A DNA stretch of 64,000 bases from Candidatus Krumholzibacteriia bacterium (GTDB lineage: Bacteria; Krumholzibacteriota; Krumholzibacteriia; JAJRXK01), in assembly GCA_041484665.1 (NCBI GenBank), contig JBGPIA010000002.1, positions 224,001 to 288,000 on the forward strand, written 5' to 3'. A program made the translations under genes and the position numbers. How positions within the stretch are numbered: the stretch's first letter is position 1; each line of letters begins with the position of its first letter. Below the pieces are notes generated by a model that had not been told where the DNA came from, made no database searches, and worked only from the letters and a program-made list of their open reading frames with translations. Below are positions 12,683 through 64,000 of this stretch, piece after piece.

Positions 12683-12970
12683 TTACGCGCCGCCGCTGGT
12701 CGCCGCCCGGCTCTTTCCCTCAACGTAACGACAGAGGGGGCCGAGGATCGTCAGCTCCTCGGCGTCCAGATCCTCGAAATCGATCGCGAGTCCAAACCGA
12801 TGCTCGATGGCCGAGATCATCTCAAGGATCCCGAGCGAATCGATGACCCCTTCGGTGAGGAGATCGAAATCGTCGGGCACTTGCGCGGGCTCGAGACCCT
12901 TCGCGGCGAGTGAGCTCGCGAATCTCTCCAGCAAGAGGGCTCGGACCGCTTCCGCCGTGATGACACTCAT
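12683..12970 (-). CDS. Acyl/aminoacyl carrier protein (DltC-like)
   Basis: 95 aa, acidic, with the GVIDSLG phosphopantetheine-attachment motif; ATGA-coupled to the adenylation gene. Confidence 0.9.
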   Translation of the reverse strand: MSVITAEAVRALLLERFASSLAAKGLEPAQVPDDFDLLTEGVIDSLGILEMISAIEHRFGLAIDFEDLDAEELTILGPLCRYVEGKSRAATSGGA

Positions 12971-14592: not shown

Positions 14593-14892
14593 CGAGTGGA
14601 GACCGTTGCTGGATTTGGACTTGCGGCCTCGCCGCGGCGCGCGCCCCCGCAGAACGCGCGCCCGCGCGCCATTGCGCGGAATAAGAAACCTACCACAGCT
14701 TGGGAAGCCTGGCCATCCCGCGGGTCGCACACGGGCCGCGCGCACCACGCTGGTCGCCAACGCGGGCGATCTCCCGCTGCGCGACCGGCTCCGGATCACC
14801 GGTTCGCATACACCTGATGCTTGCCCGTGGTTGAGCGGCGGCGAGTCGTGCGCCCAAGGTCCGCGAGCGCGACTGGTGCCGGGTCACCTCCG

Positions 14893-32229: not shown

Positions 32230-34707
32230 GTGCCTTCCCGCTCCTTTCTCGCCTCGCGCGCTGCCCGGGTGGCCGTCGCCGTCGGGGCCTGCGCGGCATG
32301 CCTCTGGACGCCTGGCGCCAGCGCGTGGCTGCGCGTGCTGGGCGCGGTGGGTCTGCTGGCGGCCCTACCCGGCTGGGGTCTGCAACGCTGGCTGCTGGGC
32401 GCGGGACCGGCCGGGCTGTTGCAACGGTGCGCGGTCGGGGCGACCGCGCCGTGGGCGGTCCATGGGATCCTCGCCACGCTGCTCGGCGCAGCGGGGGTGG
32501 GGCCACACGTGGCGGCGGCGACGGCGACCGCGTTGGGAATTGGGGCCGGACTGTTCGGGCGGTCCGCGCGGCACCACGAGCGCGCGGCGTCTGCCGCGGG
32601 CCGGCGCGAGCTGCTGGCGGTCGCGCTGCTGGTGCTGCTAACGGTCTGCATCGCGTCCTGCCCGCCCGAGCTCTCCTTGCGCTCCGACGTGTACGCCCAC
32701 GTGGCAGCCGTGCGCGCCTGCCTCGAGGAGAACCGCGTCTTCCCCCGCCACGAGTTCTACGCGCTCCAGCAGACCGAGGGGCCCGACCCCAGGTTCGGGA
32801 CGGCCCACGCCTTCGATGCGAGCCTGTCGGCGCTGGCGCGGGTGACGCCGCTTGAGCTGTGGACCCGTCTGTGTGGCCTGCTGCCGCTGGTCTGGGGCCT
32901 GAGCACCGCATCGCTTGCGGTGATCGCTTGCCGCACCCGCCGCGGGCGCGTGCTGGCGGCCGTGCTGTTCCTGGGCTGCTACGGCGGCACGATCTACAAC
33001 CCGCTGCGCGTGGCGGCATACCCACAGTGGGTGGGGTTGGCGCTGGTCTGGACGGGGCTGGGGCTGCTGCTGGAAGCGCACCGCCGCGACCGTCGCCGAG
33101 CGACCTGGGCTGCGGCGGCGCTGTTGGCTGGCTGCGGAGCCCTGCACGCCCTCTCGTTCCTGTTGGGCGCAACCCTGCTTGCGGCGGCGGCCATCACCGC
33201 TCCGCGCGCGCGACGCGCGGAATGGGCGCGCGCGCTGGCCGTTTTCGCAGCGATCGCGAGTCCGGTGATGGCCCTGCGCCTCGCCTTGAGTCACGGCAAC
33301 GAGAATCCCATCCACCAGTTGCCCTGGTATCCGTTGCAATGGCGACCGGGCTTGTTCTCGGTACGCCCGGACTATCTGCTGCAGTGGCTGTTCCCCATGG
33401 GGCTGGCTGCGCTGCTGCTGATGCCGGCTCTGTGGCGGCGCGGTGCGCAGGCGCACGCCGAGCGCTGGGCGGTGCTGGCGGGCGCGGCGACCCTGGCCTG
33501 GCTGGCGATCCCGTGGTTGCTGACGCCGTCGTTGTCGGTCCTGGGATTCCTGCCCTTGCGCTTCATCCTGGCCGTCCTCTTCCCCCTGTTGTGGGGCCTG
33601 TGGGCCGACGGTGGCGCTGTGCACGGTGGCGCGCCTGCGCGCGGCGCGCGCAGATTCGCCGCCACGCTGGCGCTTTTGGTGGCCGCGGGCAGTCTTGCCT
33701 TGCGCCTGGCGGCGGCCCGCACGCCGGCGGCGGACGCCTTCGTGGACGAGCCGCAGTGGATAGAGATCACGCGCGCGCTGGATACCCTGCCGCACGGCAC
33801 GGCCGTCGTACTGTCCGACCCCTACACGATGCTCGCGGTGCGGGCGTGCACGTCGCAGCGGATCGTGGCGGTGCCCGATGGACGCTCGTCACCTCGGGAC
33901 GCGCAGGCGCTGCAGCGGCTGCGCGACACGTGGAGCGCCATGAGCCCCTCTACGGACGCTGCCGGCACCGACGCGTTGCTCGTGCGCTACGGCGTCACGC
34001 ACGTCTTGCTGAATCGCGGATTCCGCCAGGACCTGCTCGGCTTCGAGTACGCCGTCGCGCTGGCCGACCTCCCTGCGCAGCGCGCGAAGCTCGCCGGCAA
34101 CCCGCAACGCTATCGGCTTGTGCGCGAGGTGGGTGGGTTCGCGCTGTACGAGGTGGTGCGCGGGGCCGTGACGTCCGAAGGGCCATGGCGGCAAGCCTGT
34201 ACCCGGGAGCGGCCGCCCAGAACAACTCTTGCGGCGCCCCTGCACGACGGGTTCGAGCTGCTGGAGGGCGCAGTCGAGCCGGGCGATCCCGCCAGCGGTC
34301 GGCCCGCGGTGGCTCGGCTGCAGCTTGGCTACCGCGGCGCGCTCCCAGCCCCCTACCGGGAGATCGTGCTGCGCGCCGACGCGACCCCGTCGCCCGTGCC
34401 CGCATGGCTGCGACCGGTGGGCAAGCCGGTGCGCAAGCTGCTCGAGCTGGCGCAGCGCAGGCGCACCCGGGCGCGCTGGACCGCGCTGCCCGGCGATGCC
34501 CGCTGCCCGACCTTCTTATTGCAGAACGGCAACGTGCAGGACGTAGACGTCCCGTTGCCGATCCCACCGTCACTCTCGGCCGGTGTCTACGACGTCACGG
34601 TGCAGGTGGCCGGCAGCAGCGAGTTCACCGCGCTGGCGCCGCGTGACTTCCTGCGCGACGACGACATCTACAGCGGCCCGGTGGTCGGGCGCCTTACGGT
34701 CCGCTGA
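32230..34707 (+). CDS. Large polytopic membrane protein, GT-C-like, with a C-terminal soluble domain (paralog of 42890-45439)
   Basis: More than 10 hydrophobic segments, an early acidic loop SD...H...DPRFG.AH, VLSDP.T after the TM region, and the YGVTHVLLN pattern seen in periplasmic domains of GT-C proteins. Confidence 0.6.
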   Translation: MPSRSFLASRAARVAVAVGACAACLWTPGASAWLRVLGAVGLLAALPGWGLQRWLLGAGPAGLLQRCAVGATAPWAVHGILATLLGAAGVGPHVAAATATALGIGAGLFGRSARHHERAASAAGRRELLAVALLVLLTVCIASCPPELSLRSDVYAHVAAVRACLEENRVFPRHEFYALQQTEGPDPRFGTAHAFDASLSALARVTPLELWTRLCGLLPLVWGLSTASLAVIACRTRRGRVLAAVLFLGCYGGTIYNPLRVAAYPQWVGLALVWTGLGLLLEAHRRDRRRATWAAAALLAGCGALHALSFLLGATLLAAAAITAPRARRAEWARALAVFAAIASPVMALRLALSHGNENPIHQLPWYPLQWRPGLFSVRPDYLLQWLFPMGLAALLLMPALWRRGAQAHAERWAVLAGAATLAWLAIPWLLTPSLSVLGFLPLRFILAVLFPLLWGLWADGGAVHGGAPARGARRFAATLALLVAAGSLALRLAAARTPAADAFVDEPQWIEITRALDTLPHGTAVVLSDPYTMLAVRACTSQRIVAVPDGRSSPRDAQALQRLRDTWSAMSPSTDAAGTDALLVRYGVTHVLLNRGFRQDLLGFEYAVALADLPAQRAKLAGNPQRYRLVREVGGFALYEVVRGAVTSEGPWRQACTRERPPRTTLAAPLHDGFELLEGAVEPGDPASGRPAVARLQLGYRGALPAPYREIVLRADATPSPVPAWLRPVGKPVRKLLELAQRRRTRARWTALPGDARCPTFLLQNGNVQDVDVPLPIPPSLSAGVYDVTVQVAGSSEFTALAPRDFLRDDDIYSGPVVGRLTVR

Positions 34708-37602: not shown

Positions 37603-38646
37603 CTACGGTCCAGATGGGGTTGCGGATCCGTCACCCAGCCGCTCTCGCACGAACGCAGCCACGTCCCGCGTGACCCGGACGGCCTCCGACTCGCCAAAGT
37701 GGGCCGTCGACTGCATGACGTCGGGCTCCGTCGAGAGCGGAACCGTCTCTACAATGATGCTGCCCGGCATCGACGCGGCGACCGAACGCCGCATCTGGCG
37801 CTGGTAGTCATCATCGCAGGACCCGCCGCGTACGTAGGGCATGACCACGACGAACACCGGGGTTCTGGACTTCGCGCACAGCGCGCCGATCCTTCGCAGT
37901 CCAGCCCGGGCATCGTCGTGGATCCACGCGCGACGGCCCGCTTCCACCAGGGGCTGCGCCGGCGTGGGAAACCACCCGGAGTTGCCGGCCAGGATGCCCT
38001 GGGCCAGCTCTGGGGTCACCATTCGCCCCATCTGTGGCTGCGTCCAGTGCCCCTGGTCGAGCCAGATCGCCCGCACGAAGCCCCCAAACGAATCGTTCAC
38101 GCGCTTGAGAACTGGCTGCGTGCGAGCCGTTCCCGCTGCGAGCCTCCCTGCCAACCACGCCCTGTACCCGTAGCGCTCGTTGCGCTCATCGCTCTCGCTC
38201 AGGGTCTGGGGGTGGACCCACACCACCACCGCCGACGGGAGCGCGTGGTGCGTGAGCCGCGCCTCAAGGAGCAGCGCATGGCCCGACGTGCTCACGTATC
38301 CGAAGGTGCCAAGATTGAGCGCGCTCAGCCCACTCACCGCCGTGAACTGCGGAGCGGCGAAGCCAAACAAGCAGCTGGAGTCCCCGATCGCCCAAACTGA
38401 CGCATCGCTTTCGCCCAAGGCAAGCTCCGCTTTCGTTTCGAGCACGACGTAGTCGAAGTACTGGTCATCCAGCGGCAGCCCGCCGAGGAACCCCGACTGC
38501 TCGGCAGTGGAACGCGCGCGCCGGGCGGTGCGCGCGAGGATCGCCGCCAGCGCTCCACCGACCAGCACCGCCAGCAGCACTACGATCACCGCCGCGCGAC
38601 GCGTCATGGGACGAACCGATGCGGTCTGGCTCTTGTCCTGGCTCAT
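37603..38646 (-). CDS. DltD/AlgJ-like SGNH protein partnered with the MBOAT
   Basis: N-terminal TM, AIGDSS, LNLG, V.MP and a C-terminal AHF...A; directly downstream of the MBOAT. Start ATG 38646. Confidence 0.65.
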   Translation of the reverse strand: MSQDKSQTASVRPMTRRAAVIVVLLAVLVGGALAAILARTARRARSTAEQSGFLGGLPLDDQYFDYVVLETKAELALGESDASVWAIGDSSCLFGFAAPQFTAVSGLSALNLGTFGYVSTSGHALLLEARLTHHALPSAVVVWVHPQTLSESDERNERYGYRAWLAGRLAAGTARTQPVLKRVNDSFGGFVRAIWLDQGHWTQPQMGRMVTPELAQGILAGNSGWFPTPAQPLVEAGRRAWIHDDARAGLRRIGALCAKSRTPVFVVVMPYVRGGSCDDDYQRQMRRSVAASMPGSIIVETVPLSTEPDVMQSTAHFGESEAVRVTRDVAAFVRERLGDGSATPSGP

Positions 38647-38669
38647 AGGCGCCCCTCCACGGTCTGCCG

Positions 38670-40097
38670 CTAGAACTGGAAGTACAGGAATGGGGTCTGA
38701 CGGAACGCGCCGAACGCCAGGATCAACGCCGCGAGCACCCCCGCGAAGCAGCCGCGAGAAACGACGCCCAGGCGCACCGGACCCGGGTTCTGGTAGTTCC
38801 TCGACTCGAACGCATCGAGCGCGCACATCACCGCGAAGAAGCCCGCGACCGCAGTCACCTGCGCGCCCGTGAAGACGCACGGAGTCTGCCAGTTGAACCA
38901 CTGCTTGCTCAACACCACGACATTGCGCAGGCCATGCACCCGGAAGAACACCCAACTCTGTAGCACGAAAGCAAAGGTCAGCAGCCATGACGTCGCCATC
39001 ACGGCGGGCCCCAGCCGGGCGGAGACCCGCTCGGCCAGACTCCTGCTCCGGAAGAAAAAGCGGTGGAAGACCAGTCCGATGCCCTGCCACCCGCCCCAGA
39101 AGACGAAGTTCCAGGCGGCCCCGTGCCAGAGTCCACCGAGCAGCATGGTCGTCATCAGATTGACATACGTGCGTCTGCTGCCACGGGCGTTGCCGCCCAG
39201 CGGAATGTACAGGTAGTCGCGAAGCCAGGAGGACAGGCTGATGTGCCACCGCCGCCAGAAATCCTGGATGTTGAGCGACGCATAGGGGGCCCGGAAATTG
39301 ACCATCAGGTCGATGCCGAACCACTTCGCGACCCCACGGGCGATGTCCGAGTAGCCCGAGAAATCGCAGTAAATCTGGATCGCAAAGGCCACCGTGCCGA
39401 CCAGCAGACTGGCAATCCCGACGTGAGCGGGATGCTGGTAAATGCGCTCGACGACCAGCGCCATGTTGTCGGCGAGCACGCTCTTGCGAAAGAACCCCAG
39501 CAAGACCAGCCAGAGGCCATGCTCGATATCCTCGGCGCGCAGTCTGCGCGGCGCGAGCATCTGCGGGAGCAGCCGCGCTCCTCGCTCGATGGGCCCCGCG
39601 ACCAGCTGCGGAAAGAACGACACAAAGGCGCCGAAGGCGATGAAGTCCTTCGTTGGCGCCACCTTTCCACGGTAGACGTCGATCGTGTAGCTCATGGTCT
39701 GGAACGTGTAGAAGCTGATTCCAACCGGCAAGATGATGTTCAACGTGGTCAGGTTGACATGCAGGCCGGCCGATTCCGTCAGACGGATGAGACTCTTGAC
39801 GAAGAAGTCGAAGTACTTGAAGAACCCGAGCAGGCTGAGCTGGCCGGTCACGCTGATGGAGAGCAAGAGACGCTTGGCACGTTGGGTGCCTGCCCGCGCA
39901 ATTCCCCGCGCCACGAAGTAATCGAGCACCATCGAAGCGCCGAGGAGGAACAGGAATCGCCAATCCCAAAACCCATAGAAGATGCAGCTCAGGACCAGGA
40001 TGACGAAGTTCTGCACCCTGAGTCGCTGATGGGCGGCCCAGTACACGACGAGGGCAATGGGGAGGAAGAGCGCGAAGGCGAGGGAGTTGAAGAGCAT
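38670..40097 (-). CDS. MBOAT family O-acyltransferase (AlgI/DltB-like)
   Basis: MLFNS, LPVGISFYTFQ.MSY.IDVY, FFPQLVAGPIER, DFSGYSDIA.G, FWRRWHISLSSWLRDYLYIPLGG and GLWHGA.W. Start ATG 40097. Confidence 0.95.
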   Translation of the reverse strand: MLFNSLAFALFLPIALVVYWAAHQRLRVQNFVILVLSCIFYGFWDWRFLFLLGASMVLDYFVARGIARAGTQRAKRLLLSISVTGQLSLLGFFKYFDFFVKSLIRLTESAGLHVNLTTLNIILPVGISFYTFQTMSYTIDVYRGKVAPTKDFIAFGAFVSFFPQLVAGPIERGARLLPQMLAPRRLRAEDIEHGLWLVLLGFFRKSVLADNMALVVERIYQHPAHVGIASLLVGTVAFAIQIYCDFSGYSDIARGVAKWFGIDLMVNFRAPYASLNIQDFWRRWHISLSSWLRDYLYIPLGGNARGSRRTYVNLMTTMLLGGLWHGAAWNFVFWGGWQGIGLVFHRFFFRSRSLAERVSARLGPAVMATSWLLTFAFVLQSWVFFRVHGLRNVVVLSKQWFNWQTPCVFTGAQVTAVAGFFAVMCALDAFESRNYQNPGPVRLGVVSRGCFAGVLAALILAFGAFRQTPFLYFQF

Positions 40098-40393
40098 GGG
40101 TCGAAGCGCACCGCGCGCGATGGCTGTCGGCCCCGGCCGGCCGGTTCGCGGCGCCGCCGGGCACACGCCTTCTGGCGACGGGCTAAACGCTCAGGGGCGC
40201 TGGCGTCGGTCTCGTTTCGGCTGGTGTCTCGGCTGCAGCTGGCGTCTCGGCTTCGGTCAGAATTGCTTCTGGCGTGGGTGACGCCGCTTCGGGTTGGACG
40301 TGCGAGCGCAACCCGCAAGGATAACCATCGAAGTCTCGCACACCCTGCCCCCCTGGTCAAGCGCCCGCAGGACCCTCGGAGTCCAACCCGTTG

Positions 40394-41143
40394 TCATTGC
40401 GTCTGGCACGCCGGCGCGGTCCCCAGCGTCGATTTGACCCAAGCCTCGATCGCAGTTGCCCAGATGCGATATCCGTCTTCACTGAGGTGCAGGAAATCCG
40501 GCATCAGCTCCCGGCGGATGCCCCCACCTCCATCCATGAACGCGGATCCGAAGTCGGCGTAGGAGATTCCCTCCTCGGTCGACCAAGTCTGCAGGATCTG
40601 GTTCACCTGCAGCGCCAGGTCTCGCTGCTCGTTCGGCTGCTCCCCGCGCGGAAACAGCCCGACCACCAGAATGCGGATTTGCGGAAACTCGGCGCGCAAG
40701 GCGTCCACGATCTTGCCGATTCCATCTGCGACGCGGCGAGGATCGTCGGCCGGACCGACCAGGTTGTTCGTCCCAATGAGCACCACTGCGGTCCGCGGGC
40801 AGATCCCGTCCAGGTTTCCGTTGAGCAGCCGCCAGAGACAGTGCTCGACGCGATCACTGCTGCACCCGAGGTTCCCAGCGGCCCTCGAGCCGTAGAACTC
40901 CTCCCAGACCCGCCGTCCCTCCCTCTGCCAGCACTCCGTGATGGAGTCCCCCACGAAGATCAGGTCGGGCCGAAGCCGCCGATTCTCGGCACTGATCGCG
41001 CGGAAGCGCTGCAGCGATCGGCCGGCGGGGCGCCTGGGTTGTACCGTGGAATCGCTCGGAGCGCCGCAGCCAGCCGCGACGACCGCCCAGCAGAGGAGCG
41101 CCAGTGCGCAGCCACGTCCCGCTACGGTCCAGCGTCCAGTCAC
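40394..41143 (-). CDS. GDSL/SGNH acetylhydrolase (PAF-AH IB-like), probable lipoprotein
   Basis: FVGDSIT, IGTNN and PDFLHLS..GY; VAAG-C lipobox. Start uncertain (GTG 41143 or 41233). Confidence 0.85.
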   Translation of the reverse strand: MTGRWTVAGRGCALALLCWAVVAAGCGAPSDSTVQPRRPAGRSLQRFRAISAENRRLRPDLIFVGDSITECWQREGRRVWEEFYGSRAAGNLGCSSDRVEHCLWRLLNGNLDGICPRTAVVLIGTNNLVGPADDPRRVADGIGKIVDALRAEFPQIRILVVGLFPRGEQPNEQRDLALQVNQILQTWSTEEGISYADFGSAFMDGGGGIRRELMPDFLHLSEDGYRIWATAIEAWVKSTLGTAPACQTQ

Positions 41144-41234
41144 CGCCCGTAATCGTCCGGCGCATCGGGCGAGCGCCTTTGACACAGGGCCGCACGCTGC
41201 CGGACGCCGCTCGTTGTTGGCCGATCGGTGCACG

Positions 41235-42889: not shown

Positions 42890-45439
42890 TCACGGCCGGT
42901 CGGGCACTGGCTCACCTGCAGTGGCCGGGTGGGGACTTTGGATCTCCACGACCCCGACGCTGGGCCCCGACCAGCGATCGCGGTCACTCAGATAATCACG
43001 CAGGTCGCGCCGCTGGCGCCAGACCGCCTCCTGCACGGTGAGCTCCAGCACGTAGCGGCCGGGCCGGACGTAGGGGGGAACCCGGATTTCCCGCACCTCG
43101 GACGCGCCCTCGGCCGGCCATTCCGTCGGCGGCCACACGCCGTCGAAGGGCACCCACGACCCGTTGAAACGCGCCAGGCTGCGCCCGCTGTCCTCGATCA
43201 GGAATTTGCGCACCAGCTTGCTCACCGGCGCCAGCACCCTGGGGACCGCTGGCATCGGCCCCTCGAAGCGCAGGTTGAACCGCTCCCAGCCCGGATGGAT
43301 CGTCCGTGCCGGGCCATGGGCGGGCGCGTACCAGATCTGCACCGCCAGCCTCCCCCCCGCCGCGACCTGCTCCTGCAACGGCCGGATGCCGACCACCGCA
43401 ATGCGGCTGCCGTCCACCGGTCGCGCCAGCAGTCCGGCCGGATCGAGGCCTGCAGGCCCCTGGAGTTGCAAGGATCGTGCGCCGGGTGGGGCCTGCCACG
43501 CCTGGGTCGGGGAGTGCAGGTCCCCTGCGTCGAACAGCTCCCAGCCTTCGCCCTGGCGGCGCGGTGGCACGCCCAGCCCGTGCAGCCACTGCACCAGCTC
43601 GCGCTGGGCGCCGTCGCTGGCCACGAACCCGAAGTCACCGACTCCGCTGATCGCCTCCACGCGCTCATTGATCAAGAGGTAGCGGGCGCCCAAGGAATCC
43701 AGCGCAGCGGTGATCCGCACCGGCGTACGCACCGGGCTGAACAGGGAACGATAGACCGTCAAGCGCCCCACGAGCCCCGTATCAACGGGGCTGGCGTGCG
43801 CCACGGGGTAGACCGGCATGGCTCCGCCGCGCAACCCGCGCACGGCGTAGCTGGTGCGTGGATCGGAGGCCACCCGCCCGTGCGGCAGCTCGTCGAGGGC
43901 CGCTGCCATGGCGGCGAAACGCCGCCATTCCACCGGGTTCGCCGCGTCCGGGCCCACCCGCAGTGCCTGCGCGGTCAGCCGCACTTCCGAGAGCAACAGC
44001 ACGAGCGCGAGGCCAGCGGCCAGCAGGCCGCGCGCGCGCGGGCGCGGCCGACCCGAGCTGCGCAGCGCCTGCGCGCCGAAGGCCAGCAGCAGGATCCACA
44101 ACGCCGGGGTCCAGGCCATCCGGCCCAGGCGCACCGAGAGGTAGCTGATCGCCGACCACGCCAACGGCTGCACCAGCGGATCCAGGCAAACGGTCCACAT
44201 CATCGCCGCGCCTGCGAGCGCTGCCAGCCGCCGCGGGCGCCTCCAGAATGATCCCGCCTGCAGCAGCACCAGCGGGAATGCCACCATCGAGCCCCATCCG
44301 CTCCAGTACGCAAGCACCAACGGGTCCACGACGAAGAGACCCCCACCCACGAACAAAGCGTCGGTCACGACCGCGTGAAGGCCGGCATTGCTGGCGCCGC
44401 GCTGCGTCAGCTGCGGCAGCATCAGCAGCGCGCCCAGCCCGGCCGCCCCCAGCAACGAGGCGAGCAGAGGCCGCGCGCGGCCGCGCGTCGCTGGGCGCAA
44501 CGCGCACAAGCCTGCCGCGTGCGCCACCAGCGCGCAGGTGGCCACCCAACCCAGCGGGTGCACGGGCGCTGTGAACGCGACGAGCGCGGGTCCCCGCCAC
44601 CGCGCGATCCGCGCTCCGGGCGCGCCCGGGTGCTCACCGCTGGCGTCGTCGGGGAGCCAGTCCTCGATCCAGGCCGCCAGCCCCAGCGCTGCCAGCGACA
44701 CGGCGATCTGTGCCGGATAGCCGGCTGACCAGACGCCATACGCCCGCCCGCCGGCACCGCCGATGGCCAGCAGCAACGCGGCCAAGAGTGCCCACGGCCC
44801 CGGCAGTCCGATCGCGACGAACAGCCACGCATGGGCCAACAGAAACAGCGGGCCCAGCGCCACCGGCGCGCGCGCCCACACGTCGGCCGGGTCGGCGCCC
44901 AGGCCGCGCGCCAAGAGCGCGTACACCCCGTGGGCGAGACCGAAGCGCGGATCGCTGCGTCGCTGCGTCTCGTCGAAGGAGTGGTCGGGCGGGCGCAGCT
45001 GCGCGGTGGAGAGAGCGTCGCGGATGGCCCCCAGATGGGCCGGCGCATCGGTGGCGATGTTGAGCGGAGGCGGCGTCGCGGCGATCCACGCGGACAGCAT
45101 CAACGTGACGAGCAGGGTGACCAGGGTCAGCCCGGGATCGGCCAGGCGCAGGCGTGACCGGCGCTCGCCGCGGCGCAGCGTGCGGCCCAGCGCCAGTCCC
45201 AGCGGCAGCACGAGGCTCACCGCCCACGCGGCGGCGCACGCTTGCAGGTGCACACCCAGCGCGTCCAGGACCACCGCCAGCCCCAGGTCGTGGAGCGCTC
45301 CGGCGAGGAGGATGCGCCCGGCGATGATGATTCCGCGCGCCGGCGCTGTCGCCCCACCGCCACGGCCCCCGGTGGCCCAGGACCAGAGGCCTCCGGGCGC
45401 GGCCGCCAGCAGCAGCCAGACCAGAGGCGTCGCCAGCAC
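42890..45439 (-). CDS. Large polytopic membrane protein, GT-C-like (paralog of 32230-34707)
   Basis: TD..AH...DPRFG.AH, GYP, SDP.TSY, SP.D, GARYLLIN and a C-terminal DYL.D.D.WSGP.VG. Start GTG 45439 with GGGAGG RBS. Confidence 0.6.
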   Translation of the reverse strand: MLATPLVWLLLAAAPGGLWSWATGGRGGGATAPARGIIIAGRILLAGALHDLGLAVVLDALGVHLQACAAAWAVSLVLPLGLALGRTLRRGERRSRLRLADPGLTLVTLLVTLMLSAWIAATPPPLNIATDAPAHLGAIRDALSTAQLRPPDHSFDETQRRSDPRFGLAHGVYALLARGLGADPADVWARAPVALGPLFLLAHAWLFVAIGLPGPWALLAALLLAIGGAGGRAYGVWSAGYPAQIAVSLAALGLAAWIEDWLPDDASGEHPGAPGARIARWRGPALVAFTAPVHPLGWVATCALVAHAAGLCALRPATRGRARPLLASLLGAAGLGALLMLPQLTQRGASNAGLHAVVTDALFVGGGLFVVDPLVLAYWSGWGSMVAFPLVLLQAGSFWRRPRRLAALAGAAMMWTVCLDPLVQPLAWSAISYLSVRLGRMAWTPALWILLLAFGAQALRSSGRPRPRARGLLAAGLALVLLLSEVRLTAQALRVGPDAANPVEWRRFAAMAAALDELPHGRVASDPRTSYAVRGLRGGAMPVYPVAHASPVDTGLVGRLTVYRSLFSPVRTPVRITAALDSLGARYLLINERVEAISGVGDFGFVASDGAQRELVQWLHGLGVPPRRQGEGWELFDAGDLHSPTQAWQAPPGARSLQLQGPAGLDPAGLLARPVDGSRIAVVGIRPLQEQVAAGGRLAVQIWYAPAHGPARTIHPGWERFNLRFEGPMPAVPRVLAPVSKLVRKFLIEDSGRSLARFNGSWVPFDGVWPPTEWPAEGASEVREIRVPPYVRPGRYVLELTVQEAVWRQRRDLRDYLSDRDRWSGPSVGVVEIQSPHPATAGEPVPDRP

Positions 45440-45440
45440 G

Positions 45441-45812
45441 CTACCTCCCAGTGCGGGCCACGAGAACGATCCCGGCACCGATCACCAGGATTCCCAGCAG
45501 CCGCGCCGGGTTCGGCGACTCGCCCAGCCAGGCCCATCCGGCGAAGAACGAGAGCACGTAGGACATGCTCATCATTGGATATAAGAGCGAGAGCTGCATG
45601 CGGCTGAGCAGGTCGAGCCACAAGAGCGTTGTAACGCCGAAGATGGCCAGGCCCAGCAGGATCCGCCAGCTCGTGGCCAGCTGCCCGATCTGGCGCGGCA
45701 GCTGCGGCGATCCCACGTCGATCGTTCCGATCCGGGTCAGACCGGTCTTCCACAGGATCTGCGCCGTGACCATGAGGCACAGGCAAGACGCCAGGAGGAT
45801 CCAGTTGCGCAC
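45441..45812 (-). CDS. Small EamA/SMR-type membrane protein (ArnE/ArnF-like lipid-linked sugar flippase subunit)
   Basis: 123 aa, four TM segments, AQ.L.K.G, W...LSR..LS..YP..S.SYV and GE. Confidence 0.82.
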   Translation of the reverse strand: MRNWILLASCLCLMVTAQILWKTGLTRIGTIDVGSPQLPRQIGQLATSWRILLGLAIFGVTTLLWLDLLSRMQLSLLYPMMSMSYVLSFFAGWAWLGESPNPARLLGILVIGAGIVLVARTGR

Positions 45813-57622: not shown

Positions 57623-58372
57623 TCAGCGAGCGGAGGACCCCGCCAGCAGCGCCAGGGCGATGCCCAGGCCGGCTCCCACTACCGTATTGAGGAAGTTCAT
57701 CGCCTCGTTTCCGATTCGCTGCCGCCTCCCCCAGACCGCTCCGACGTAGCTCTCAGCCAGCGCGCCGCCGAAGGCCGCGACCACCGGCACCCACAAGAGC
57801 GCCGCGGGCACCAAGCCCAGCACGCAGCCGAAGAACGCGAGCACCAACGATCCCAGCACCCCAGCCAGCGTCCCCTCCACCGAGACAGCACCCTCCGTCC
57901 CCGGAGGCACCGCACGCAGCGTCGTGGGCAGGATGGGATGCTTGCCGTAGAGCTGCCCGATCTCGCTGCCAAGCGTGTCGCTGGTGGCCGTGGCGAACGC
58001 GCTCACCAGCCCCACCGCCCACACCGGCGCGCTCGTGAATGGCAACAACGTCGCCAGCGCCATCCCGGTGGCGCAGTTGGCCGCGGCGTGGCGGCTCCCG
58101 CGACGGCCGCCCTCCTCCTGCGCGATCCCGGCGGCGGCTTTGCGGGAGTAGCCCAGCCGCGTCGCCCCCGTGCCGAGCAGGAAGAACGCGAGCAGCAGCG
58201 CCCACGACGCCAGACCACCGAACCACAGGATCCACGTGCCGACCACGACGCCCCCCGCGAAGCCGCTGCGGCTCACCGCGCCGCGGGCCAGGGCCACGCC
58301 CCCCAGCGCGAGGTTCGCCGCCACCGCCAGCAGCAGAACGGGAGCCGACAGATGCGGCCGGAGCCACTCCAC
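57623..58372 (-). CDS. DUF92 (TMEM19/VTE6-like) membrane protein
   Basis: FF..G...T..G...K, GG.RG....AN, A.A.SDT..SEIG, TTL..VPPGTEGAVS.EGT, ES..GA and NE..NF.NT. Confidence 0.92.
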   Translation of the reverse strand: MEWLRPHLSAPVLLLAVAANLALGGVALARGAVSRSGFAGGVVVGTWILWFGGLASWALLLAFFLLGTGATRLGYSRKAAAGIAQEEGGRRGSRHAAANCATGMALATLLPFTSAPVWAVGLVSAFATATSDTLGSEIGQLYGKHPILPTTLRAVPPGTEGAVSVEGTLAGVLGSLVLAFFGCVLGLVPAALLWVPVVAAFGGALAESYVGAVWGRRQRIGNEAMNFLNTVVGAGLGIALALLAGSSAR

Positions 58373-58375
58373 GCT

Positions 58376-59482
58376 TCAGCCTCCCACCGCACCGCGTGCC
58401 GCGTCGCCCGCCTCGCCCGCCGTCGCGGAACCCCGGCCGCCGGCGCCCTCCCGCGCCAGCCAGTCCAGGGTGAGTCGCAGCCCTTCGCGCAGGCCACGCC
58501 CCTGGTAACCCAGCTCGGCGCGCGCCCGCGCGTCGTCGCACGCCCAGTGGTGGGCATAGGTGCGCACCATGCCAGGCGTGAGCTGCGGCGGGACGTGCAG
58601 CAGCTCGGCGCGCAGTTGTTGCGCTGCGGCCAGGGCTGACAGCACCCACAACGGGATGCGCCGGCGCAGCCGCGGCCGGCCGGCCAGATCGCACGCCAGG
58701 TCGAGGAATCCGCGCAGCGTGGCGTTCTCGCCGCCCAGCAGGTAGGATGCGCCCCGCGCCCCGTGCGCCAGCGCCAGGCAGTGGCCGCGCGCGACGTCCT
58801 CTACGTATGCGTAGTTCCACACCTGCTCGCCGTTGCCGATCAACCCGGGCAGCCGCCCGCGTAACAGATCCTCGAGGATGCGGGCGACGTGGTTGCCCTC
58901 CGTGCGCTCCCCGGGACCGTAGATCACCGTCGGTAAACAGCTCACCACATCGAGCCCCTCTTCCGCGTGACGCCGCACCACGTCCGCCGCCCGGAGCTTC
59001 GTGCGGTCGTAGTCGTTGAACCACAGGCCGGGCGAGCGCGCCCCTTCGTCGTGGGGCAAGGGCCCCTGCGAGGGCCCCAGCACGAAGAAGCTCGACGTGT
59101 AGACCACGCGCGACACACCCGCCAGGCGGCATTCCCGCAGCAACACATCGAGGGCCTCGACGTTGACACGATCGAAGCGCGTGCGATCGCGCTCCCAGTT
59201 CTTCACGATGCCCGCGGTGTGCACGACGGCGCGCACCTGCGCCAGCACCGGGCGCCAGGTCGCCGGGTCGAGCAGGTCCCCCTCCTGCCAGCGCAGCGCG
59301 AGCGTGGGCAAGCCCTGGCGTCGGGCGCCACGGCGTGCCAGCAGCGTGACGCGGTAGCCCGCCTCTACCAGCTCGTGCGCCAGCGCCTTGCCCAGGTATC
59401 CCGTCCCGCCGGTGAGCAGCACCGGATCGCCCGGCGAGAGCATCGCCACGTCGCCGGAGGCCGGCTGCGCCGGGGTGCTCAT
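58376..59482 (-). CDS. Extended SDR (NAD-dependent epimerase/dehydratase), farnesol-dehydrogenase/HpnA-like
   Basis: TGGTGYLG, GDL.D, YTSSFF..G, Y..TK, IYGPG, GRLPG.IG.G, V.DVA.GH and YLLGGEN. Start ATG 59482 (ATGA overlap). Confidence 0.88.
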   Translation of the reverse strand: MSTPAQPASGDVAMLSPGDPVLLTGGTGYLGKALAHELVEAGYRVTLLARRGARRQGLPTLALRWQEGDLLDPATWRPVLAQVRAVVHTAGIVKNWERDRTRFDRVNVEALDVLLRECRLAGVSRVVYTSSFFVLGPSQGPLPHDEGARSPGLWFNDYDRTKLRAADVVRRHAEEGLDVVSCLPTVIYGPGERTEGNHVARILEDLLRGRLPGLIGNGEQVWNYAYVEDVARGHCLALAHGARGASYLLGGENATLRGFLDLACDLAGRPRLRRRIPLWVLSALAAAQQLRAELLHVPPQLTPGMVRTYAHHWACDDARARAELGYQGRGLREGLRLTLDWLAREGAGGRGSATAGEAGDAARGAVGG

Positions 59483-60177
59483 GCCCACAGGCGGCCGCGC
59501 AGTGCCGCCAGCGTCAGCGCAGTTGCGACGGGGACGAGCAGGTTGTCGACGCCGTAGAGCGAGACCGCTTCGGCGAGCGTCGCAACCAGCGCCGCCGCCG
59601 CGGCGGCCAGCAGCAGCCCGCCGCTCAGAGCGGATGACGCGAGCCCTCCCTCGGGGACGCGCCCCAAGAGCGCGAACGCCAGCAGGATCGACAGCCACCC
59701 CACTGCCGCCATGGCCACGCTGCCCTCCAGCGTCCGCGGGTGGCCGGCGACGCGGTACGTGCGCCGCCCGAATCGCCGCCCCACGAGCGACGCCGCCGCG
59801 TCACCGTAGGCCATCACCAGCACCCCGGCCGCGCCGACGGCGCGCCAGCCAGGCTCCCAGCAGGTGGCCAGCAGCAGCGCCACGCTCAACGGATAGAGCA
59901 CCGTACCGACGCTGTGCTCCTCCCCCTCCATGCTGGCGATCCAGCCGAAGCGGTGGCTGAGCGCGTTGACCGCTGTGAACCCCAGCGCCAACGCCGCGGG
60001 CCATCGCCACGTGCTGAAGAGCAGGTAGCTCGGCACGATCCAGCTGCCGATGCCCACGTGCACGATCTTGCGCGTCACCTGCCGCGCCAGGCCGCGGCGA
60101 CGGGCCAGCTCGGCCACCAGGATCACCGCTGCGACCCACGCGGCCGACAGCAACACGCCGCACAGGTCACGGCTCAC
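59479..60177 (-). CDS. CTP-dependent isoprenoid-alcohol kinase family protein (phytol/farnesol/dolichol kinase-like)
   Basis: RKIVH.G.G, MA.GD.AA..VG..FG, [KR]TLEGS.A and E......DNL.VP; multi-TM. Start GTG 60177. Confidence 0.88.
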   Translation of the reverse strand: MSRDLCGVLLSAAWVAAVILVAELARRRGLARQVTRKIVHVGIGSWIVPSYLLFSTWRWPAALALGFTAVNALSHRFGWIASMEGEEHSVGTVLYPLSVALLLATCWEPGWRAVGAAGVLVMAYGDAAASLVGRRFGRRTYRVAGHPRTLEGSVAMAAVGWLSILLAFALLGRVPEGGLASSALSGGLLLAAAAAALVATLAEAVSLYGVDNLLVPVATALTLAALRGRLWA

Positions 60178-60556
60178 GGAGTGCTCCCTCCAGCACGACC
60201 ACCGCGATCGCCTGGTCCCGCTCGTGGCTGATGGAGACGTGGACCGCGCCACCGCCCAGCGCCCCATGGACGCGTGCCGCGGCGCGGTGGAAGCGGATGG
60301 TCGGGCGCTGGGACTCGCCGCCCACCAACTCGACGTCGCGCCAGGCAATGCCCAGCGCGAGCCCGGTGCCCAGCGCCTTGAGCGCAGCTTCCTTGGCGGC
60401 GAATCGCCCGGCCAGGCACTCGTACATCCGCCGGCTGCGGCAGCGTTGGCGCTCCGCGTCGGTGAAGACGCGGGCGAGGAACCGCTCGCCGTAACGCGTG
60501 GCCAGCTCCTCGATGCGCCGCACGTCGCACAGGTCGACGCCGATCCCGACGATCAC
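60167..60556 (-). CDS. acpS: Holo-[acyl-carrier-protein] synthase
   Basis: IVGIGVD, RVFT..E, LAGRFAAKEA..KALGTG and HVSISH. Confidence 0.96.
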   Translation of the reverse strand: MIVGIGVDLCDVRRIEELATRYGERFLARVFTDAERQRCRSRRMYECLAGRFAAKEAALKALGTGLALGIAWRDVELVGGESQRPTIRFHRAAARVHGALGGGAVHVSISHERDQAIAVVVLEGALREP

Positions 60557-60638
60557 GGCGCGCCGCTCCGCCCGCTGGAAGCTTGGCCGCCGGCGATCCG
60601 GCCACGGTCCACCGGGATGCCCGCACTTGGCTCGCGCG

Positions 60639-61568
60639 CTAGAAGATGTAGGAGACGGCGAACCCGATCTGCAGCGCCATCATCATGAGGTACATGTGGG
60701 TCCACGACGGGTGGTTCTCCGTGGTCGCGAGCTCGTCGGGGCGCCTCACCAGCAGCCAGACGGTGTAGATCCCCCACGCCGCCAACAGCAGCCCGAGCAG
60801 GTCCAGCAGCCGGCCGTTGCCGGTCAGGATACCTGCGCGCACGCCGACGGGCAAAAGGACAAATGGAAGCACGAAGAACGGAGCGATCATCCACGCCGCG
60901 CGCTTCACGCCGAAACGCACCGGCAGCGTATAGCAGCCGTTGGCCTCGTCGCCCTTCATGTCGGCGAAGTCCTTGGTCGAGGCTGCCCCCAGCAGGAACA
61001 GGAAGAAAATCGAGCCGATGTACCACGGCTCGACCGCCAGGAAGCTCTTGACCGTGGTCCAGCCCGCCACCTTGAGCATGAGCCCGCGCGGAAGTGCGAT
61101 CGTGAGGTTGGCGCCCAGCGCGTCGCGCTTGGTCCGCAAGGGCGGCGCCGAGTAGGCCCAGGTCAGCACCGCGGCGGTCGCGGCCAGCGCGAAGCACTGC
61201 CAGTTCACCAGCGCGGCCAGCGCGAGCGCGATCGCGTAGAGAGCCGCCGTGACCGCCCGGGCCTGCGCGATGGACATGCGCCCCGAGGGGAGCGCGCGCT
61301 TGGGTTTGTTGATGGCGTCCACCGGCAGGTCGTAGATCTGATTGATGCCGTTGCTGGCCGCATTCAGGACGGCGGCCATCAGCGCCCCCACCAGCACGCG
61401 CAGCGCCATCTCCCAGCCGAACGTGCTGCGGGGGTGGGCGCCGAACGCGGTGATCCCGCCGCTGACCATCCCCAGTGCGGGCGGCCACAGCGTGAACGGC
61501 CGGGAGAACTCCACGTAGAGCCGCAGGCGCTGGAGCGCCCCGAGTACGGGCACGGCGGTGGTGGTCAT
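60639..61568 (-). CDS. UbiA-superfamily prenyltransferase (NQxxD type)
   Basis: SRP.T, NGINQIYD..VD.INKP.R.LPSG, YSAPPLR.K and KDFADMKGD...G..TLPV..G; about eight TM segments. Confidence 0.92.
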   Translation of the reverse strand: MTTTAVPVLGALQRLRLYVEFSRPFTLWPPALGMVSGGITAFGAHPRSTFGWEMALRVLVGALMAAVLNAASNGINQIYDLPVDAINKPKRALPSGRMSIAQARAVTAALYAIALALAALVNWQCFALAATAAVLTWAYSAPPLRTKRDALGANLTIALPRGLMLKVAGWTTVKSFLAVEPWYIGSIFFLFLLGAASTKDFADMKGDEANGCYTLPVRFGVKRAAWMIAPFFVLPFVLLPVGVRAGILTGNGRLLDLLGLLLAAWGIYTVWLLVRRPDELATTENHPSWTHMYLMMMALQIGFAVSYIF

Positions 61569-61634: not shown

Positions 61635-62321
61635 TCAGTAGGCTCCCTTGCGCGCGATCACCGCAGGCACGGTACGCATGAGGATCCAGAAGTCCAGCTT
61701 CAAGCTGCGCCGGCGCACGTACTCGCCGTCCAGGCGCATCCACTCCCCGAAGTCCACGTCGTTGCGGCCGCTGATCTGCCACAGGCAGGTGATCCCGGGC
61801 TTCACCAGCAGCCGCACGCGGTCTTGTGCCGAGTAGCGCGCGACCTCGTCGGGCACCTGGGGACGGGGGCCAACCAGGGACATCTCGCCGCGCAGCACGT
61901 TGATGAGCTGAGGGAACTCGTCCAGCGAGCTGCGACGGACGAAGCGGCCCACGCGCGTGACGCGCGGGTCCTCGCGGATCTTGAAGGCGGCCCCATCGGC
62001 CTCGTTGAGGTGACTGAGGCTCGCGCGCAGCTGCTCGGCGTTGCGGATCATGGAGCGGATCTTGTAGCAGCGGAAGACGCGGCCGTAACGTCCTGCGCGC
62101 TCCTGGCCGAACAGGAAGGGCCCATCGCTCTCGAGCCTCACCAGCAGGAACAAGAACGGCACCAGCGGCAGGAACAGCAGCAGCGCAAAGGAGGCCGCGG
62201 CGGCGTCCACGACCCGCTTCACCGGCTCGTACAGAAAGTGGTTGCCGACGGGAACGGCGGGCTCCTCCACTGCGCTCCCCAGGTTCGTGGCCTGAGCGTG
62301 CCGCTGCGTCAAGATGGACAT
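61635..62321 (-). CDS. Priming phosphoglycosyl transferase (Bac_transf), copy 2
   Basis: [41 protein letters not shown] and KPGITCLWQISGR. Start ATG 62321 (GGAG RBS), or 62366. Confidence 0.95.
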   Translation of the reverse strand: MSILTQRHAQATNLGSAVEEPAVPVGNHFLYEPVKRVVDAAAASFALLLFLPLVPFLFLLVRLESDGPFLFGQERAGRYGRVFRCYKIRSMIRNAEQLRASLSHLNEADGAAFKIREDPRVTRVGRFVRRSSLDEFPQLINVLRGEMSLVGPRPQVPDEVARYSAQDRVRLLVKPGITCLWQISGRNDVDFGEWMRLDGEYVRRRSLKLDFWILMRTVPAVIARKGAY

Positions 62322-62368
62322 CGATGTGGGCTCCGCAGGTGCGCGCGCGGACGGGAGGGCTTGCATTC

Positions 62369-62467: not shown

Positions 62468-64000
62468 TCACCCCTGCGGCCGGCGGTCGTAGAGCAGGAC
62501 CTCCACGCCGGGCAGTCGAAACACGCCTACCCGTGGGAAGCGGCGGTCCAGCGTGGCGCGCAGCTCCCCGTGCGGGTCGTCCACCCACGCGCGCGCCCGC
62601 ACGTACCACAGGTACCGTTTCTCAGCGGTGCGGTCCTCCACGACGTCGGCCACGCTGGGAGGGCTGGGCCAGCCGGCGGGCAGATAGACGCGTACCGGGC
62701 TGCTGCCGCGGTAGTAATAGAGAAAGACGTGCCCGATCGTGGGGGCGAGCACCAGGTCCTCCCGACCTTCGCGCGCCTCCACCAGCCGCGCGGCAGCGCG
62801 CACGTCCTCGCGCTGGTAGTCGGGGACGAAGTAGTAGCGCGCCAGCGCTACGCCGCTCACCGCCAGCCATCCCACCATCAGCAGCAGCGCGCTGCGGCGT
62901 GGCAGCCGCTGGAACCCCGCCCCCATCACCAACAGCAGCGTGGGCAACGCTGCGATGGTGTAGCGCGGGTTGAACGGCTTGATGTTGCGCAGCGCCAGCA
63001 GCAACGCGATCGCCACGGGCACGGCCGCCCACAAGAGCGGCTCGACGGCGCGCCGTCGCAGCGCGCTCAGCCCCGCGACCGCCAGCGTGGCGGCCAGAGC
63101 AGACACGGCAAGCACGAGCGGCAGGTGGCGGCGTGGTAGTGACAGGCCCGCGGCCGGATCGCGGCCGGCGGCCTCCTGCAGCTCGCGGGGCGACGGCCCC
63201 AGCGTCGTGCCCACAGCCAGCACGTACCCCGCGTAGGGGATCGCCCACGCCGTCATGGTCGTCTTGCCGCGCAGCGGCTCCCCCGTCTCCTGCCCCGGCA
63301 GCAGGCGCTTGCTCTCGTGGATGCGCAGGCTGGCGCTCCACCACGGCAGCGTGATGGCCAGGAGCAGCGTGAACGCCAGGGTCCAGCGGACCGCATCGCG
63401 CCGACGGATGCGCCCGGCCGCGAGCAGCCCCAGGGCGAATCCGCCCATCCAGAACAGCCCCTGCAGGTTGCAGAGCGCCGCCGCGCTGCCCAGGAGCGCG
63501 AAGGCCACGGCGCGGCCGCGCGCCAGGCGCTCGCCCGCCGACAGAGCCACCACGATGGCGGCAAGCCCGAAGAACAGCAGGTAGGCGTAGCCGCGAACCT
63601 CCTGCGCGTGCCAGATGTGGAAGGGGTGGATGGCTAGCAGCAGCGCCGCGAACAGGCCGGTGCGCGCGCCGTGCAGCCGGCGGCCGACCTCGTACAGCAG
63701 GGGCACTGAGAAGGCCCCCAGCACCGCGCCGGGCAGGCGCAGCCAGGCCTCCGCCGGCGAGCTGCGCCGCAGCCACGCCACCAGCACCATGGGCAGCGGA
63801 CTCTGTACGTCATCGAGGAACTGCTCCCACAGCGAGTGCCCCGGCTGATTGCCCTGGTTGATCGTGAGCAGCTCGTCGACCCACAGGCTCTGCGCACCGA
63901 TCCGGTACAGGCGCAGGATCAGCGCCAGCAGCGTCAGCAACATGACCGCCAGCGCCACGGACTCGCGGGGCAGCGCGCGGCGGGCTGATTCGAACCGGTC
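62468..64000 (-). CDS. GT-C glycosyltransferase (GT39/GT83, PMT/ArnT-like); the frame is open to the window edge, so the start may lie outside
   Basis: LRL......SLW.DE, PL, RLP....G, P.H...AQE.R.YA and PRY; multi-TM. Confidence 0.88.
   Translation of the reverse strand, partial: DRFESARRALPRESVALAVMLLTLLALILRLYRIGAQSLWVDELLTINQGNQPGHSLWEQFLDDVQSPLPMVLVAWLRRSSPAEAWLRLPGAVLGAFSVPLLYEVGRRLHGARTGLFAALLLAIHPFHIWHAQEVRGYAYLLFFGLAAIVVALSAGERLARGRAVAFALLGSAAALCNLQGLFWMGGFALGLLAAGRIRRRDAVRWTLAFTLLLAITLPWWSASLRIHESKRLLPGQETGEPLRGKTTMTAWAIPYAGYVLAVGTTLGPSPRELQEAAGRDPAAGLSLPRRHLPLVLAVSALAATLAVAGLSALRRRAVEPLLWAAVPVAIALLLALRNIKPFNPRYTIAALPTLLLVMGAGFQRLPRRSALLLMVGWLAVSGVALARYYFVPDYQREDVRAAARLVEAREGREDLVLAPTIGHVFLYYYRGSSPVRVYLPAGWPSPPSVADVVEDRTAEKRYLWYVRARAWVDDPHGELRATLDRRFPRVGVFRLPGVEVLLYDRRPQG

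Follow-up and report, generated by a model that had tools for sequence, protein, structure and literature searches.

A conserved gene module that probably recharges prenol for an orphan UbiA-family prenyltransferase

Why would a bacterium of the Candidatus Krumholzibacteriota carry, within an exopolysaccharide locus, a row of genes that resembles the prenyl-recycling enzymes of plants? The question is raised by a 64,000-nt stretch of contig JBGPIA010000002.1 (the window) from a genome, G000, that is 93.65% complete. Five consecutive minus-strand genes of the window encode a UbiA-family membrane prenyltransferase (60639-61568), the holo-acyl carrier protein synthase AcpS (60167-60556), a cytidine triphosphate (CTP)-type prenol kinase (59479-60177), an extended short-chain dehydrogenase/reductase (SDR) of the FLDH/HpnA type (58376-59482) and a DUF92 protein of the VTE6/COG1836 type (57623-58372). 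Plant FLDH, FOLK, VTE5 and VTE6 provide the precedent for prenyl recycling (PMC13415981, PMC9782597; articles are cited here from excerpts), and VTE6 was predicted from the COG1836 genes of photosynthetic prokaryotes (PMC9782597). As excerpted, a 2022 review records that few prenol and prenyl-phosphate kinases had been identified, and these only in plants and cyanobacteria (PMC9782597). The original prediction for the locus was a route from prenal through prenol, prenyl phosphate and prenyl diphosphate to a prenylated acceptor. Fusion, synteny and co-occurrence support this route well. The module is a real, widespread pathway of known enzyme families around an orphan transferase, and its kinases probably recharge prenol for that transferase.

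All five genes, with their motifs and overlaps, were located where the original prediction had placed them. Pfam or NCBIfam models recognized four of the products, namely UbiA (PF01040, 140 bits), AcpS (PF01648, with TIGR00516 above its cut-off), the SDR and DUF92 (PF01940, 165 bits against a cut-off of 27.5). The UbiA contains NQIYDLPVD at residue 76 and KDFADMKGD at 199; the SDR contains YTSSFF at 128, GRLPGLIGNG at 209 and YLLGGENA at 247. The 289-residue open reading frame first listed for the kinase is over-extended: the likely start is a GTG at 60177, yielding 232 residues, and that of the SDR is the ATG at 59482, yielding 368. UbiA and AcpS are separated by 82 nt, AcpS and the kinase overlap by 11 nt, the kinase and SDR overlap by 4 nt, and the SDR and DUF92 are 3 nt apart. 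The block is flanked by a pair of genes for a GT-C protein and a priming sugar transferase (PGT), the latter 66 nt ahead of UbiA, and by the wza-wzz-ATPase genes of an XrtA-type exopolysaccharide locus, with 528 nt between DUF92 and wza. A promoter and terminator scan of the region gave no signal above chance, and the region contains no listed RNA holder.

The grouping recurs far from the host. We surveyed the loci of the best 80 of at least 597 GTDB matches to the UbiA, a non-random sample that includes four from the host family. The kinase and DUF92 genes adjoined UbiA in 50 of the 80 loci and were fused as kinase::DUF92 in 46; an SDR orthologue was intact in 32 and split in two more. The order in Acidobacteriota was accD-folC-lptD-nucleotide-sugar genes-SDR-kinase::DUF92-UbiA, and lptD lay upstream in 41 of the 46 fused loci. 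Eight of nine relatives in the host family possess the UbiA; seven of these loci keep AcpS, the kinase and DUF92 adjacent, one contig ends too early, and the SDR is kept in five relatives, in one of them split over two frames. Where the locus held no intact kinase-DUF92 pair, DUF92 was encoded elsewhere in 25 of 30 genomes. Twenty of these distant DUF92 loci were retrieved, and the kinase was fused in nine and adjacent in four (13/20), with the SDR adjacent in 12; five genomes without an adjacent kinase all encoded one elsewhere. DUF92 was also fused to UbiA itself in P0154 and P0239, found among the 18 long proteins of 150 scanned. Because the grouping recurs in varied orders and as fusions across phyla, it is not due to chance.

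The distribution of DUF92 tells the same story. The domain scored above cut-off in eight of nine UbiA-positive genomes of the class versus none of 32 UbiA-negative ones, and in 52 of 53 UbiA-positive versus 18 of 98 UbiA-negative Acidobacteriota; the unpublished genome G110 is included in these control counts. The UbiA clade thus occurs in 53 of the 151 Acidobacteriota sampled, and also in Thermoplasmata; carriers of the module include many soil, groundwater and anammox bacteria. In the archaeal branch, to which one cluster gives the name Thermoplasmata, the loci are flanked by genes for L44e, aIF2-alpha and a GPN GTPase. DUF92 lay directly downstream of UbiA in eight of the first 31 archaeal loci, with neither kinase nor SDR adjacent. 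UbiA, DUF92 and the kinase are therefore a conserved unit that travels together across phyla, with the SDR as an optional member.

The transferase at the center of this unit matched no characterized family. All of its NCBIfam scores were below cut-off: 119 of 313 and 102 of 212 bits for ChlG/BchG, 95 of 296 and 79 of 353 for models of digeranylgeranylglyceryl phosphate (DGGGP) synthase, 111 of 269 for PRK12884, 97 of 226 for HPT and 52 of 250 for EboC. Models of the housekeeping quinone and heme enzymes (UbiA, MenA, MqnP and CyoE) gave at most 69 bits, short of their cut-offs. The host encodes four additional UbiA proteins, which are CyoE, MqnP-like, DPPR-synthase-like and EboC-like, respectively. 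Because separate CyoE and MqnP-like genes exist, the window UbiA is not the heme or quinone enzyme, and the objection that it might be a housekeeping prenyltransferase falls away. When 27 members of the clade and nine outgroups were placed in a quick tree, the clade occupied one side (Shimodaira-Hasegawa-like approximate likelihood ratio test, SH-aLRT, 83) and was sister to, not nested inside, two plasmid-borne ChlG sequences on a long branch. HPT and archaeal DGGGP synthases were left out of this tree because the plasmid search for such references supplied only ChlG, EboC and one sequence labelled as a geranylgeranylglyceryl phosphate (GGGP) transferase. According to the cut-offs, and for ChlG also the tree, the UbiA would belong to none of the ChlG, HPT, DGGGP synthase or EboC families. 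Judged by sequence, it represents an orphan clade in the ChlG/DGGGP synthase/HPT neighbourhood and the core of the module.

To judge from its predicted structure (predicted local distance difference test score 92.6), the UbiA most closely resembles the DGGGP synthase 6m31 (Z 28.1, rmsd 3.7, 279 residues aligned), which is also its best match in sequence, at 24% identity. Alignment with the residues named in the excerpt of PMC9385802 indicated that N76, D80, D84, D200, D203 and D207, the catalytic Mg/diphosphate set, are conserved. The two Asp-rich motifs and the nine-helix UbiA fold are present as well, but are superfamily-wide and hence not diagnostic for a DGGGP synthase. In the membrane helix spanning residues 150-170, 104 of 109 members of the clade share R161; its equivalent is missing from the DGGGP synthase-like and ChlG rows and occurs in the EboC-like row. 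This clade-typical arginine suggests that the acceptor is anionic.

Several relatives and variants of the UbiA were encountered. Two class sisters without the module (loci L010 and L011; genomes G026 and G011) encode DGGGP synthase-like UbiA proteins that score 173-191 bits against the DGGGP synthase models and branch apart from the module clade. In P0138 (649 residues; four cluster members) a fatty-acid-desaturase-family domain is fused to a UbiA of the clade. At L261, L263, L266 and L267, a tandem UbiA pair is followed by a TauE-like transporter gene, amid small genes without a hidden Markov model match. At L058, L065, L070, L313 and L315, a variant radical SAM protein adjoins UbiA, with NF045502 above cut-off in L070 and L313.

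The two putative kinases would supply this transferase. The first is a polytopic membrane protein with conserved RKxxH, GD, EGS and DN motifs, which we take to be the motif set of the VTE5/FOLK/dolichol kinase family. Across 29 sequences, R36, G125-D126, E203 and D211-N212 were invariant and H40 nearly so. Of the 42 homologues matched, seven had functional names, three as phytol kinase and four as dolichol kinase; PF01148 was assigned to two of the 42 and matched L151 weakly. A PDB sequence search returned no meaningful match. On these motifs and homologue names, the protein is assigned as a VTE5/FOLK/dolichol-kinase-like candidate prenol kinase of the CTP type and a core member of the module. 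DUF92, with TIGR00297 at 179 of 206 bits in addition to PF01940, agrees with a VTE6/COG1836-type putative prenyl-phosphate kinase in the family features that could be tested, and is the other core member. The kinase::DUF92 fusion suggests that the product of the pair is a diphosphate rather than a monophosphate.

The SDR is probably a prenal/prenol oxidoreductase. Its YDRTK and TGGTGYLG motifs are intact and, by hand count, 46 of 55 named homologues among the 120 matches listed were automatically annotated as farnesol dehydrogenase. The best PDB match was 3WJ7 (E 6.6e-36), presumably a medium-chain aldehyde reductase from Gluconobacter. Neither G005 (99% complete) nor G007 yielded an SDR orthologue. 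A hopanoid link was also considered and rejected: the SDR scored 196 bits against the HpnA model TIGR03466, below the cut-off of 368, and matches to squalene-hopene cyclase in the host genome were short and partial, with no full gene. As excerpted, PMC5462960 reports no hopanoids in the two cultured strains of subdivision 6.

A donor for the UbiA is probably made de novo by a second short-chain prenyl diphosphate synthase of the genome, of the geranylgeranyl diphosphate (GGPP) type and encoded in the window at 5738-6628 on the minus strand. The residue five places ahead of the first Asp-rich motif is the chain-length position. The window enzyme has no aromatic residue there (HTSSLVL-DD) and differs from the housekeeping IspA encoded beside dxs (HTYSLIH-DD). 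This paralogue is an extra gene in all ten genomes of the host family, one of them without a UbiA match, and in none of the 31 other genomes of the class. In a quick tree that included 20 of these 31 class controls, its clade (SH-aLRT 99) contained the top match of 14 of 30 UbiA-positive genomes from other phyla, including 11 of 17 Acidobacteriota. Co-distribution and shared clade thus support the earlier suggestion that the synthase belongs with the module, and its distribution and chain-length position together favour geranylgeranyl as the donor. A geranylgeranyl-reductase-family gene at C2:555313 was considered as a partner and rejected, its context being unrelated. Coupled to the synthase is a gene for a degenerate, membrane-anchored alkaline-phosphatase-family protein (3742-5733, minus strand). 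Proteins of this type were encoded downstream of the synthase in 11 of 19 loci; orthologues matched PF01663, as did Atlas neighbours (score 0.98), and an LRxLGY motif occurs at both ends of the protein.

A further partner emerged from gene fusions. The PF01663 domain of an exported alkaline-phosphatase-family protein, here called AlkX, was fused to UbiA in three separate clusters at 50% identity; following the nine UbiA helices, this C-terminal domain would lie outside the cytoplasm. The host genome has one copy (C2:39633-42131), with a signal-peptide-like start and the full set of metal and serine-nucleophile motifs. The AlkX gene followed UbiA in three Brocadia-type loci, preceded it in L090 and headed the operon in four Acidobacteriota, three of which had UbiA on the same stretch. 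It was present in 52 of 53 UbiA-positive Acidobacteriota, in 49 as one copy, was single in all ten host-family genomes and was found in five of five genomes from further phyla. In a quick tree of 31 rows (15 versus 16), the copies from UbiA-positive genomes separated from both members of a tandem pair found in UbiA-negative genomes, whatever the phylum (SH-aLRT 99). The AlkX subfamily thus tracks the module rather than host taxonomy. A PDB sequence search with AlkX returned no meaningful match.

The tandem pair was seen in UbiA-negative genomes of two phyla (L331-L338; for example L334:6425-12400, L337:6454-14900 and L338:6308-12423). Its first copy opens with a YIGPGAG motif, and a membrane protein of ∼277 residues without a Pfam match is encoded downstream in all eight loci. 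Several of these loci adjoin genes for a sulfotransferase, APS kinase or ATP sulfurylase; the pair possibly belongs to a system for sulfating the envelope, one that alternates with the prenyl module. Separately, the motif LRxLGY[IV] ends four exported alkaline-phosphatase-like proteins in the host genome (contigs C2, C8 and C10) and the APS kinase in L337, and may be a docking or carrier motif.

How might these parts work together? That a kinase pair is coupled so tightly to a single transferase suggests that free prenol flows steadily from the product of that transferase, as with chlorophyll, VTE5 and VTE6. In view of this flux, we read the set as attachment by UbiA, release or transfer outside the cell by AlkX, and recharging by the kinase, DUF92 and the SDR. 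The extra synthase would first provide GGPP. With its catalytic residues intact, UbiA would then move the chain to an anionic acceptor at the cytoplasmic face, forming a prenyl lipid. In the weakest step, prenol may be freed by the exported serine-nucleophile enzyme AlkX, either through cleavage of this lipid or through transfer of the head group onto a target in the envelope. To judge from their homology to VTE5/FOLK and VTE6, the CTP kinase and DUF92 would rebuild prenyl diphosphate and, by homology to FLDH, the SDR could convert any oxidized prenal to prenol, as an optional step. The observations comprise the genes themselves, the fusions among them and their shared distribution. The full cycle, in which a short and probably geranylgeranyl chain would be attached, released and recharged in the cell envelope with the participation of AlkX, is a tentative reading that we place just short of probable. 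In a more specific and rather doubtful version, the module would be a second bacterial lipid-carrier cycle, on a short prenyl chain instead of undecaprenol, in which UbiA loads a phosphorylated head group on geranylgeranyl, the exported AlkP-fold enzyme hands this group on to a polymer of the envelope, and the two plant-type CTP kinases recharge the prenol set free.

A number of observations weigh against the cycle. We know of no UbiA that forms a bond between a prenyl group and a phosphate oxygen in the direction proposed. The AlkX gene is ∼240 kb from the operon in the host genome, and the family is wider than the module: it occurs in 42 of 98 UbiA-negative Acidobacteriota, 40 of which have at least two copies, and in 13 of 31 other class genomes, paired in 12 of these 13. 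Of the 30 UbiA-positive genomes, 16 showed no member of the GGPP-type synthase clade, among them the Eisenbacteria and Brocadia that were tested, so donor length may vary. Neither Pfam nor NCBIfam had a model that matched the kinase, and the similarity of its fold to CarS 5guf (Z 7.1, rmsd 3.1, 103 residues aligned) is within noise. The SDR is missing in one genus, g4. Finally, the genomes are kin, and the co-occurrence counts overstate their independence.

The main rival explanation, and one of three uses offered with the original prediction, is that UbiA is an ether-forming enzyme like DGGGP synthase. Its stable product, for instance a prenyl ether of a lysophospholipid, a glycolipid or a polyol, would serve as a hybrid lipid of the membrane or as an anchor for glycan; prenol from turnover would merely be salvaged by the kinases, and AlkX would trim phosphate or be a loose partner. 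The match to 6m31 in both sequence and fold speaks for this, as do the annotation of archaeal members as GGGP geranylgeranyltransferases, the upstream lptD, the nucleotide-sugar genes that border the module in Acidobacteriota, Eisenbacteria and Fischerbacteria, and the reported acceptance by DGGGP synthase of glycerol-3-phosphate-based GGGP (PMC9385802). By contrast, no GGGP synthase (PcrB family) was found in the host genome or above cut-off in five other module genomes, the UbiA is far below the DGGGP synthase cut-offs while the truly DGGGP synthase-like proteins of class sisters reach much higher scores and form a separate branch, and the flanking glycan genes vary by lineage. We consider this explanation unlikely, if still a serious one. 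Another of the three uses, scavenging of environmental phytol or geranylgeraniol that is then stored or used by UbiA, would suit hosts from soil, sediment and sludge, and VTE5 and VTE6 accept both alcohols (PMC13415981). It is improbable: a dedicated de novo synthase co-occurs, dxs is encoded, genes for transport or catabolism do not recur nearby, and the surroundings of the module, also in anammox bacteria and archaea, are conserved genes for housekeeping and envelope functions.

The remaining alternatives concern the acceptor and the kinase product. The UbiA could C-prenylate an aromatic acid, as homogentisate prenyltransferases do, to form a quinone or chromanol. The NQxxDxxxD motif points this way, together with an Arg-Gly in helix 5 that we assume to be an HPT/HST feature, the score against the HPT model and the one fusion to a desaturase-family domain. 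However, no HPPD was found above cut-off in G000, G046 or G079 (G076 and G063 do have one), neither a methyltransferase nor a cyclase gene turns up repeatedly beside UbiA, and the host already has MqnP-like and CyoE genes. We thus give little credence to an aromatic acceptor in general, and a homogentisate acceptor in the host, which the motifs had brought to mind, was not borne out, no HPPD being found. In the last of the three earlier uses, the PGT and GT-C enzymes would have their sugars carried on a short prenyl phosphate from the kinase instead of on undecaprenyl phosphate; in its favour are the dolichol-kinase-like kinase and the PGT and GT-C genes ahead of the module in all eight host-family loci. 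It did not hold up and is very improbable, given that UppS is present, that PGT and GT-C genes occur in none of the 46 fused loci and that the DUF92 fusion points to a diphosphate, not a monophosphate. It is also highly unlikely that UbiA prenylates the LRxLGY tyrosine at the ends of exported alkaline-phosphatase-family proteins, with the salvage genes recycling the chain as plant FLDH and FOLK do after breakdown of prenylated proteins. Consistent with this idea, the protein coupled to the GGPP-type synthase has the motif at both ends, all four terminal LxxLGY matches in the host genome are LRxLGY whereas no control variant was terminal, and matches per genome number 2-11 in the host family against 0-6 in others. 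Yet clear copies occur in the UbiA-negative families f2, f5 and f8, and one UbiA-negative genome has the motif on an APS kinase, which is cytoplasmic.

Returning to recharging of prenol for an orphan UbiA, we compared the module with known systems. The kinase-DUF92 pair is already known from plants and photosynthetic prokaryotes. In plant and cyanobacterial phytol salvage, VTE5 and VTE6 feed ChlG and HPT, so that the same two kinase families act upstream of a UbiA from the same part of the superfamily. The present module differs in its host, a member of the Candidatus Krumholzibacteriota with no photosynthesis gene in the window, in a UbiA that is neither ChlG nor HPT by cut-off, and in genes that share one operon or are fused and have an exported phosphodiesterase-family partner. 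With plant prenylcysteine recycling (FCLY, FLDH and FOLK), it shares the FLDH-like SDR and, to go by homologue names, the FOLK-like kinase (PMC13415981); by contrast, no prenylcysteine lyase or CaaX transferase was seen, neither having been sought, and the module SDR is dispensable in one genus. The archaeal DGGGP synthase MjDGGGPS (6M31), with its homologues in FCB-group bacteria, is the closest solved structure and has both Asp-rich motifs (PMC9385802), but the window UbiA differs from it by the low identity, the replacement of D63 by Q, the clade-typical R161 and a host genome in which no GGGP synthase was found.

A precedent for pairing a UbiA with a PF01663 protein is the ebo cluster, in which EboC (UbiA) and the phosphodiesterase EboF (PF01663) occur and a prenylated carrier for periplasmic export has been proposed (PMC5133447, PMC6282210). 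Its UbiA is of a different subfamily, and the host has a separate EboC-like gene. The module lacks a sugar-phosphate cyclase, the six ebo genes listed in the excerpt of PMC5133447 include no prenol kinase, and none of eboA, eboB, eboD, eboE or eboF recurs around the module loci. The proposed cycle also follows the logic of other envelope cycles. Those of LtaS, MdoB and EptA combine an extracytoplasmic AlkP-fold enzyme with a lipid donor, and diacylglycerol kinase recycles the freed lipid alcohol; they use glycerophospholipids, ATP kinases and cytidine diphosphate chemistry, whereas the proposed cycle would use a prenol, two CTP-type kinases and a UbiA. We found no account of the module in the literature searched, which did not cover subscription journals or supplements.

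The product of the module would be an isoprenoid lipid of the envelope, unrecognized so far, in bacteria that are dominant in soil and wastewater, and of relevance to lipid biomarkers and to the diversification of UbiA proteins between archaeal ether lipids and chlorophyll esters. Were the carrier cycle true, about one third of the Acidobacteriota sampled would run it, along with anammox bacteria and several candidate phyla, and sister lineages without the module would carry a paired, sulfation-linked version of the exported enzyme. The module also offers bacterial candidates for prenol and prenyl-phosphate kinases that are expressible in E. coli and would act on soluble substrates, including a natural fusion of the two. 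Replacement of lipid A by the product was considered and rejected, LpxC being encoded in the host genome.

The module's link to glycan genes is real but loose. Such genes flank it in four lineages, different ones each time, and none was seen beside it in the Brocadia, Nitrospinota and archaeal loci read. In the window, the PGT (61635-62366, PF02397) and the GT-C protein (62468-63958, PF13231) are encoded on the minus strand, with genes for lipopolysaccharide-type heptosyltransferases immediately past the window end. The counts given above for the host family and the fused loci make the PGT and GT-C family-specific neighbours outside the conserved module, and a specific link to them, as first proposed, was not upheld. 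AcpS fared likewise as a supposed member: it was found in three of the 80 loci, all from the host family, and has one weaker second match elsewhere in the host genome. It is a single housekeeping copy and a local passenger of the operon in that family only.

Other features of the window surround this locus. Two large, related-looking polytopic membrane proteins with a GT-C-like layout, encoded at 32230-34707 on the plus strand and 42890-45478 on the minus strand, matched no Pfam or NCBIfam model. Genes for tRNA-Gly, tRNA-Cys and tRNA-Leu lie on the minus strand at 2480-2907, near the far end of the glycan locus. An MBOAT protein and a GDSL esterase (37603-41233) and a stand-alone adenylation domain (12967-14799) suggest that the polysaccharide is acylated, which might be the reason why AcpS joined the operon.

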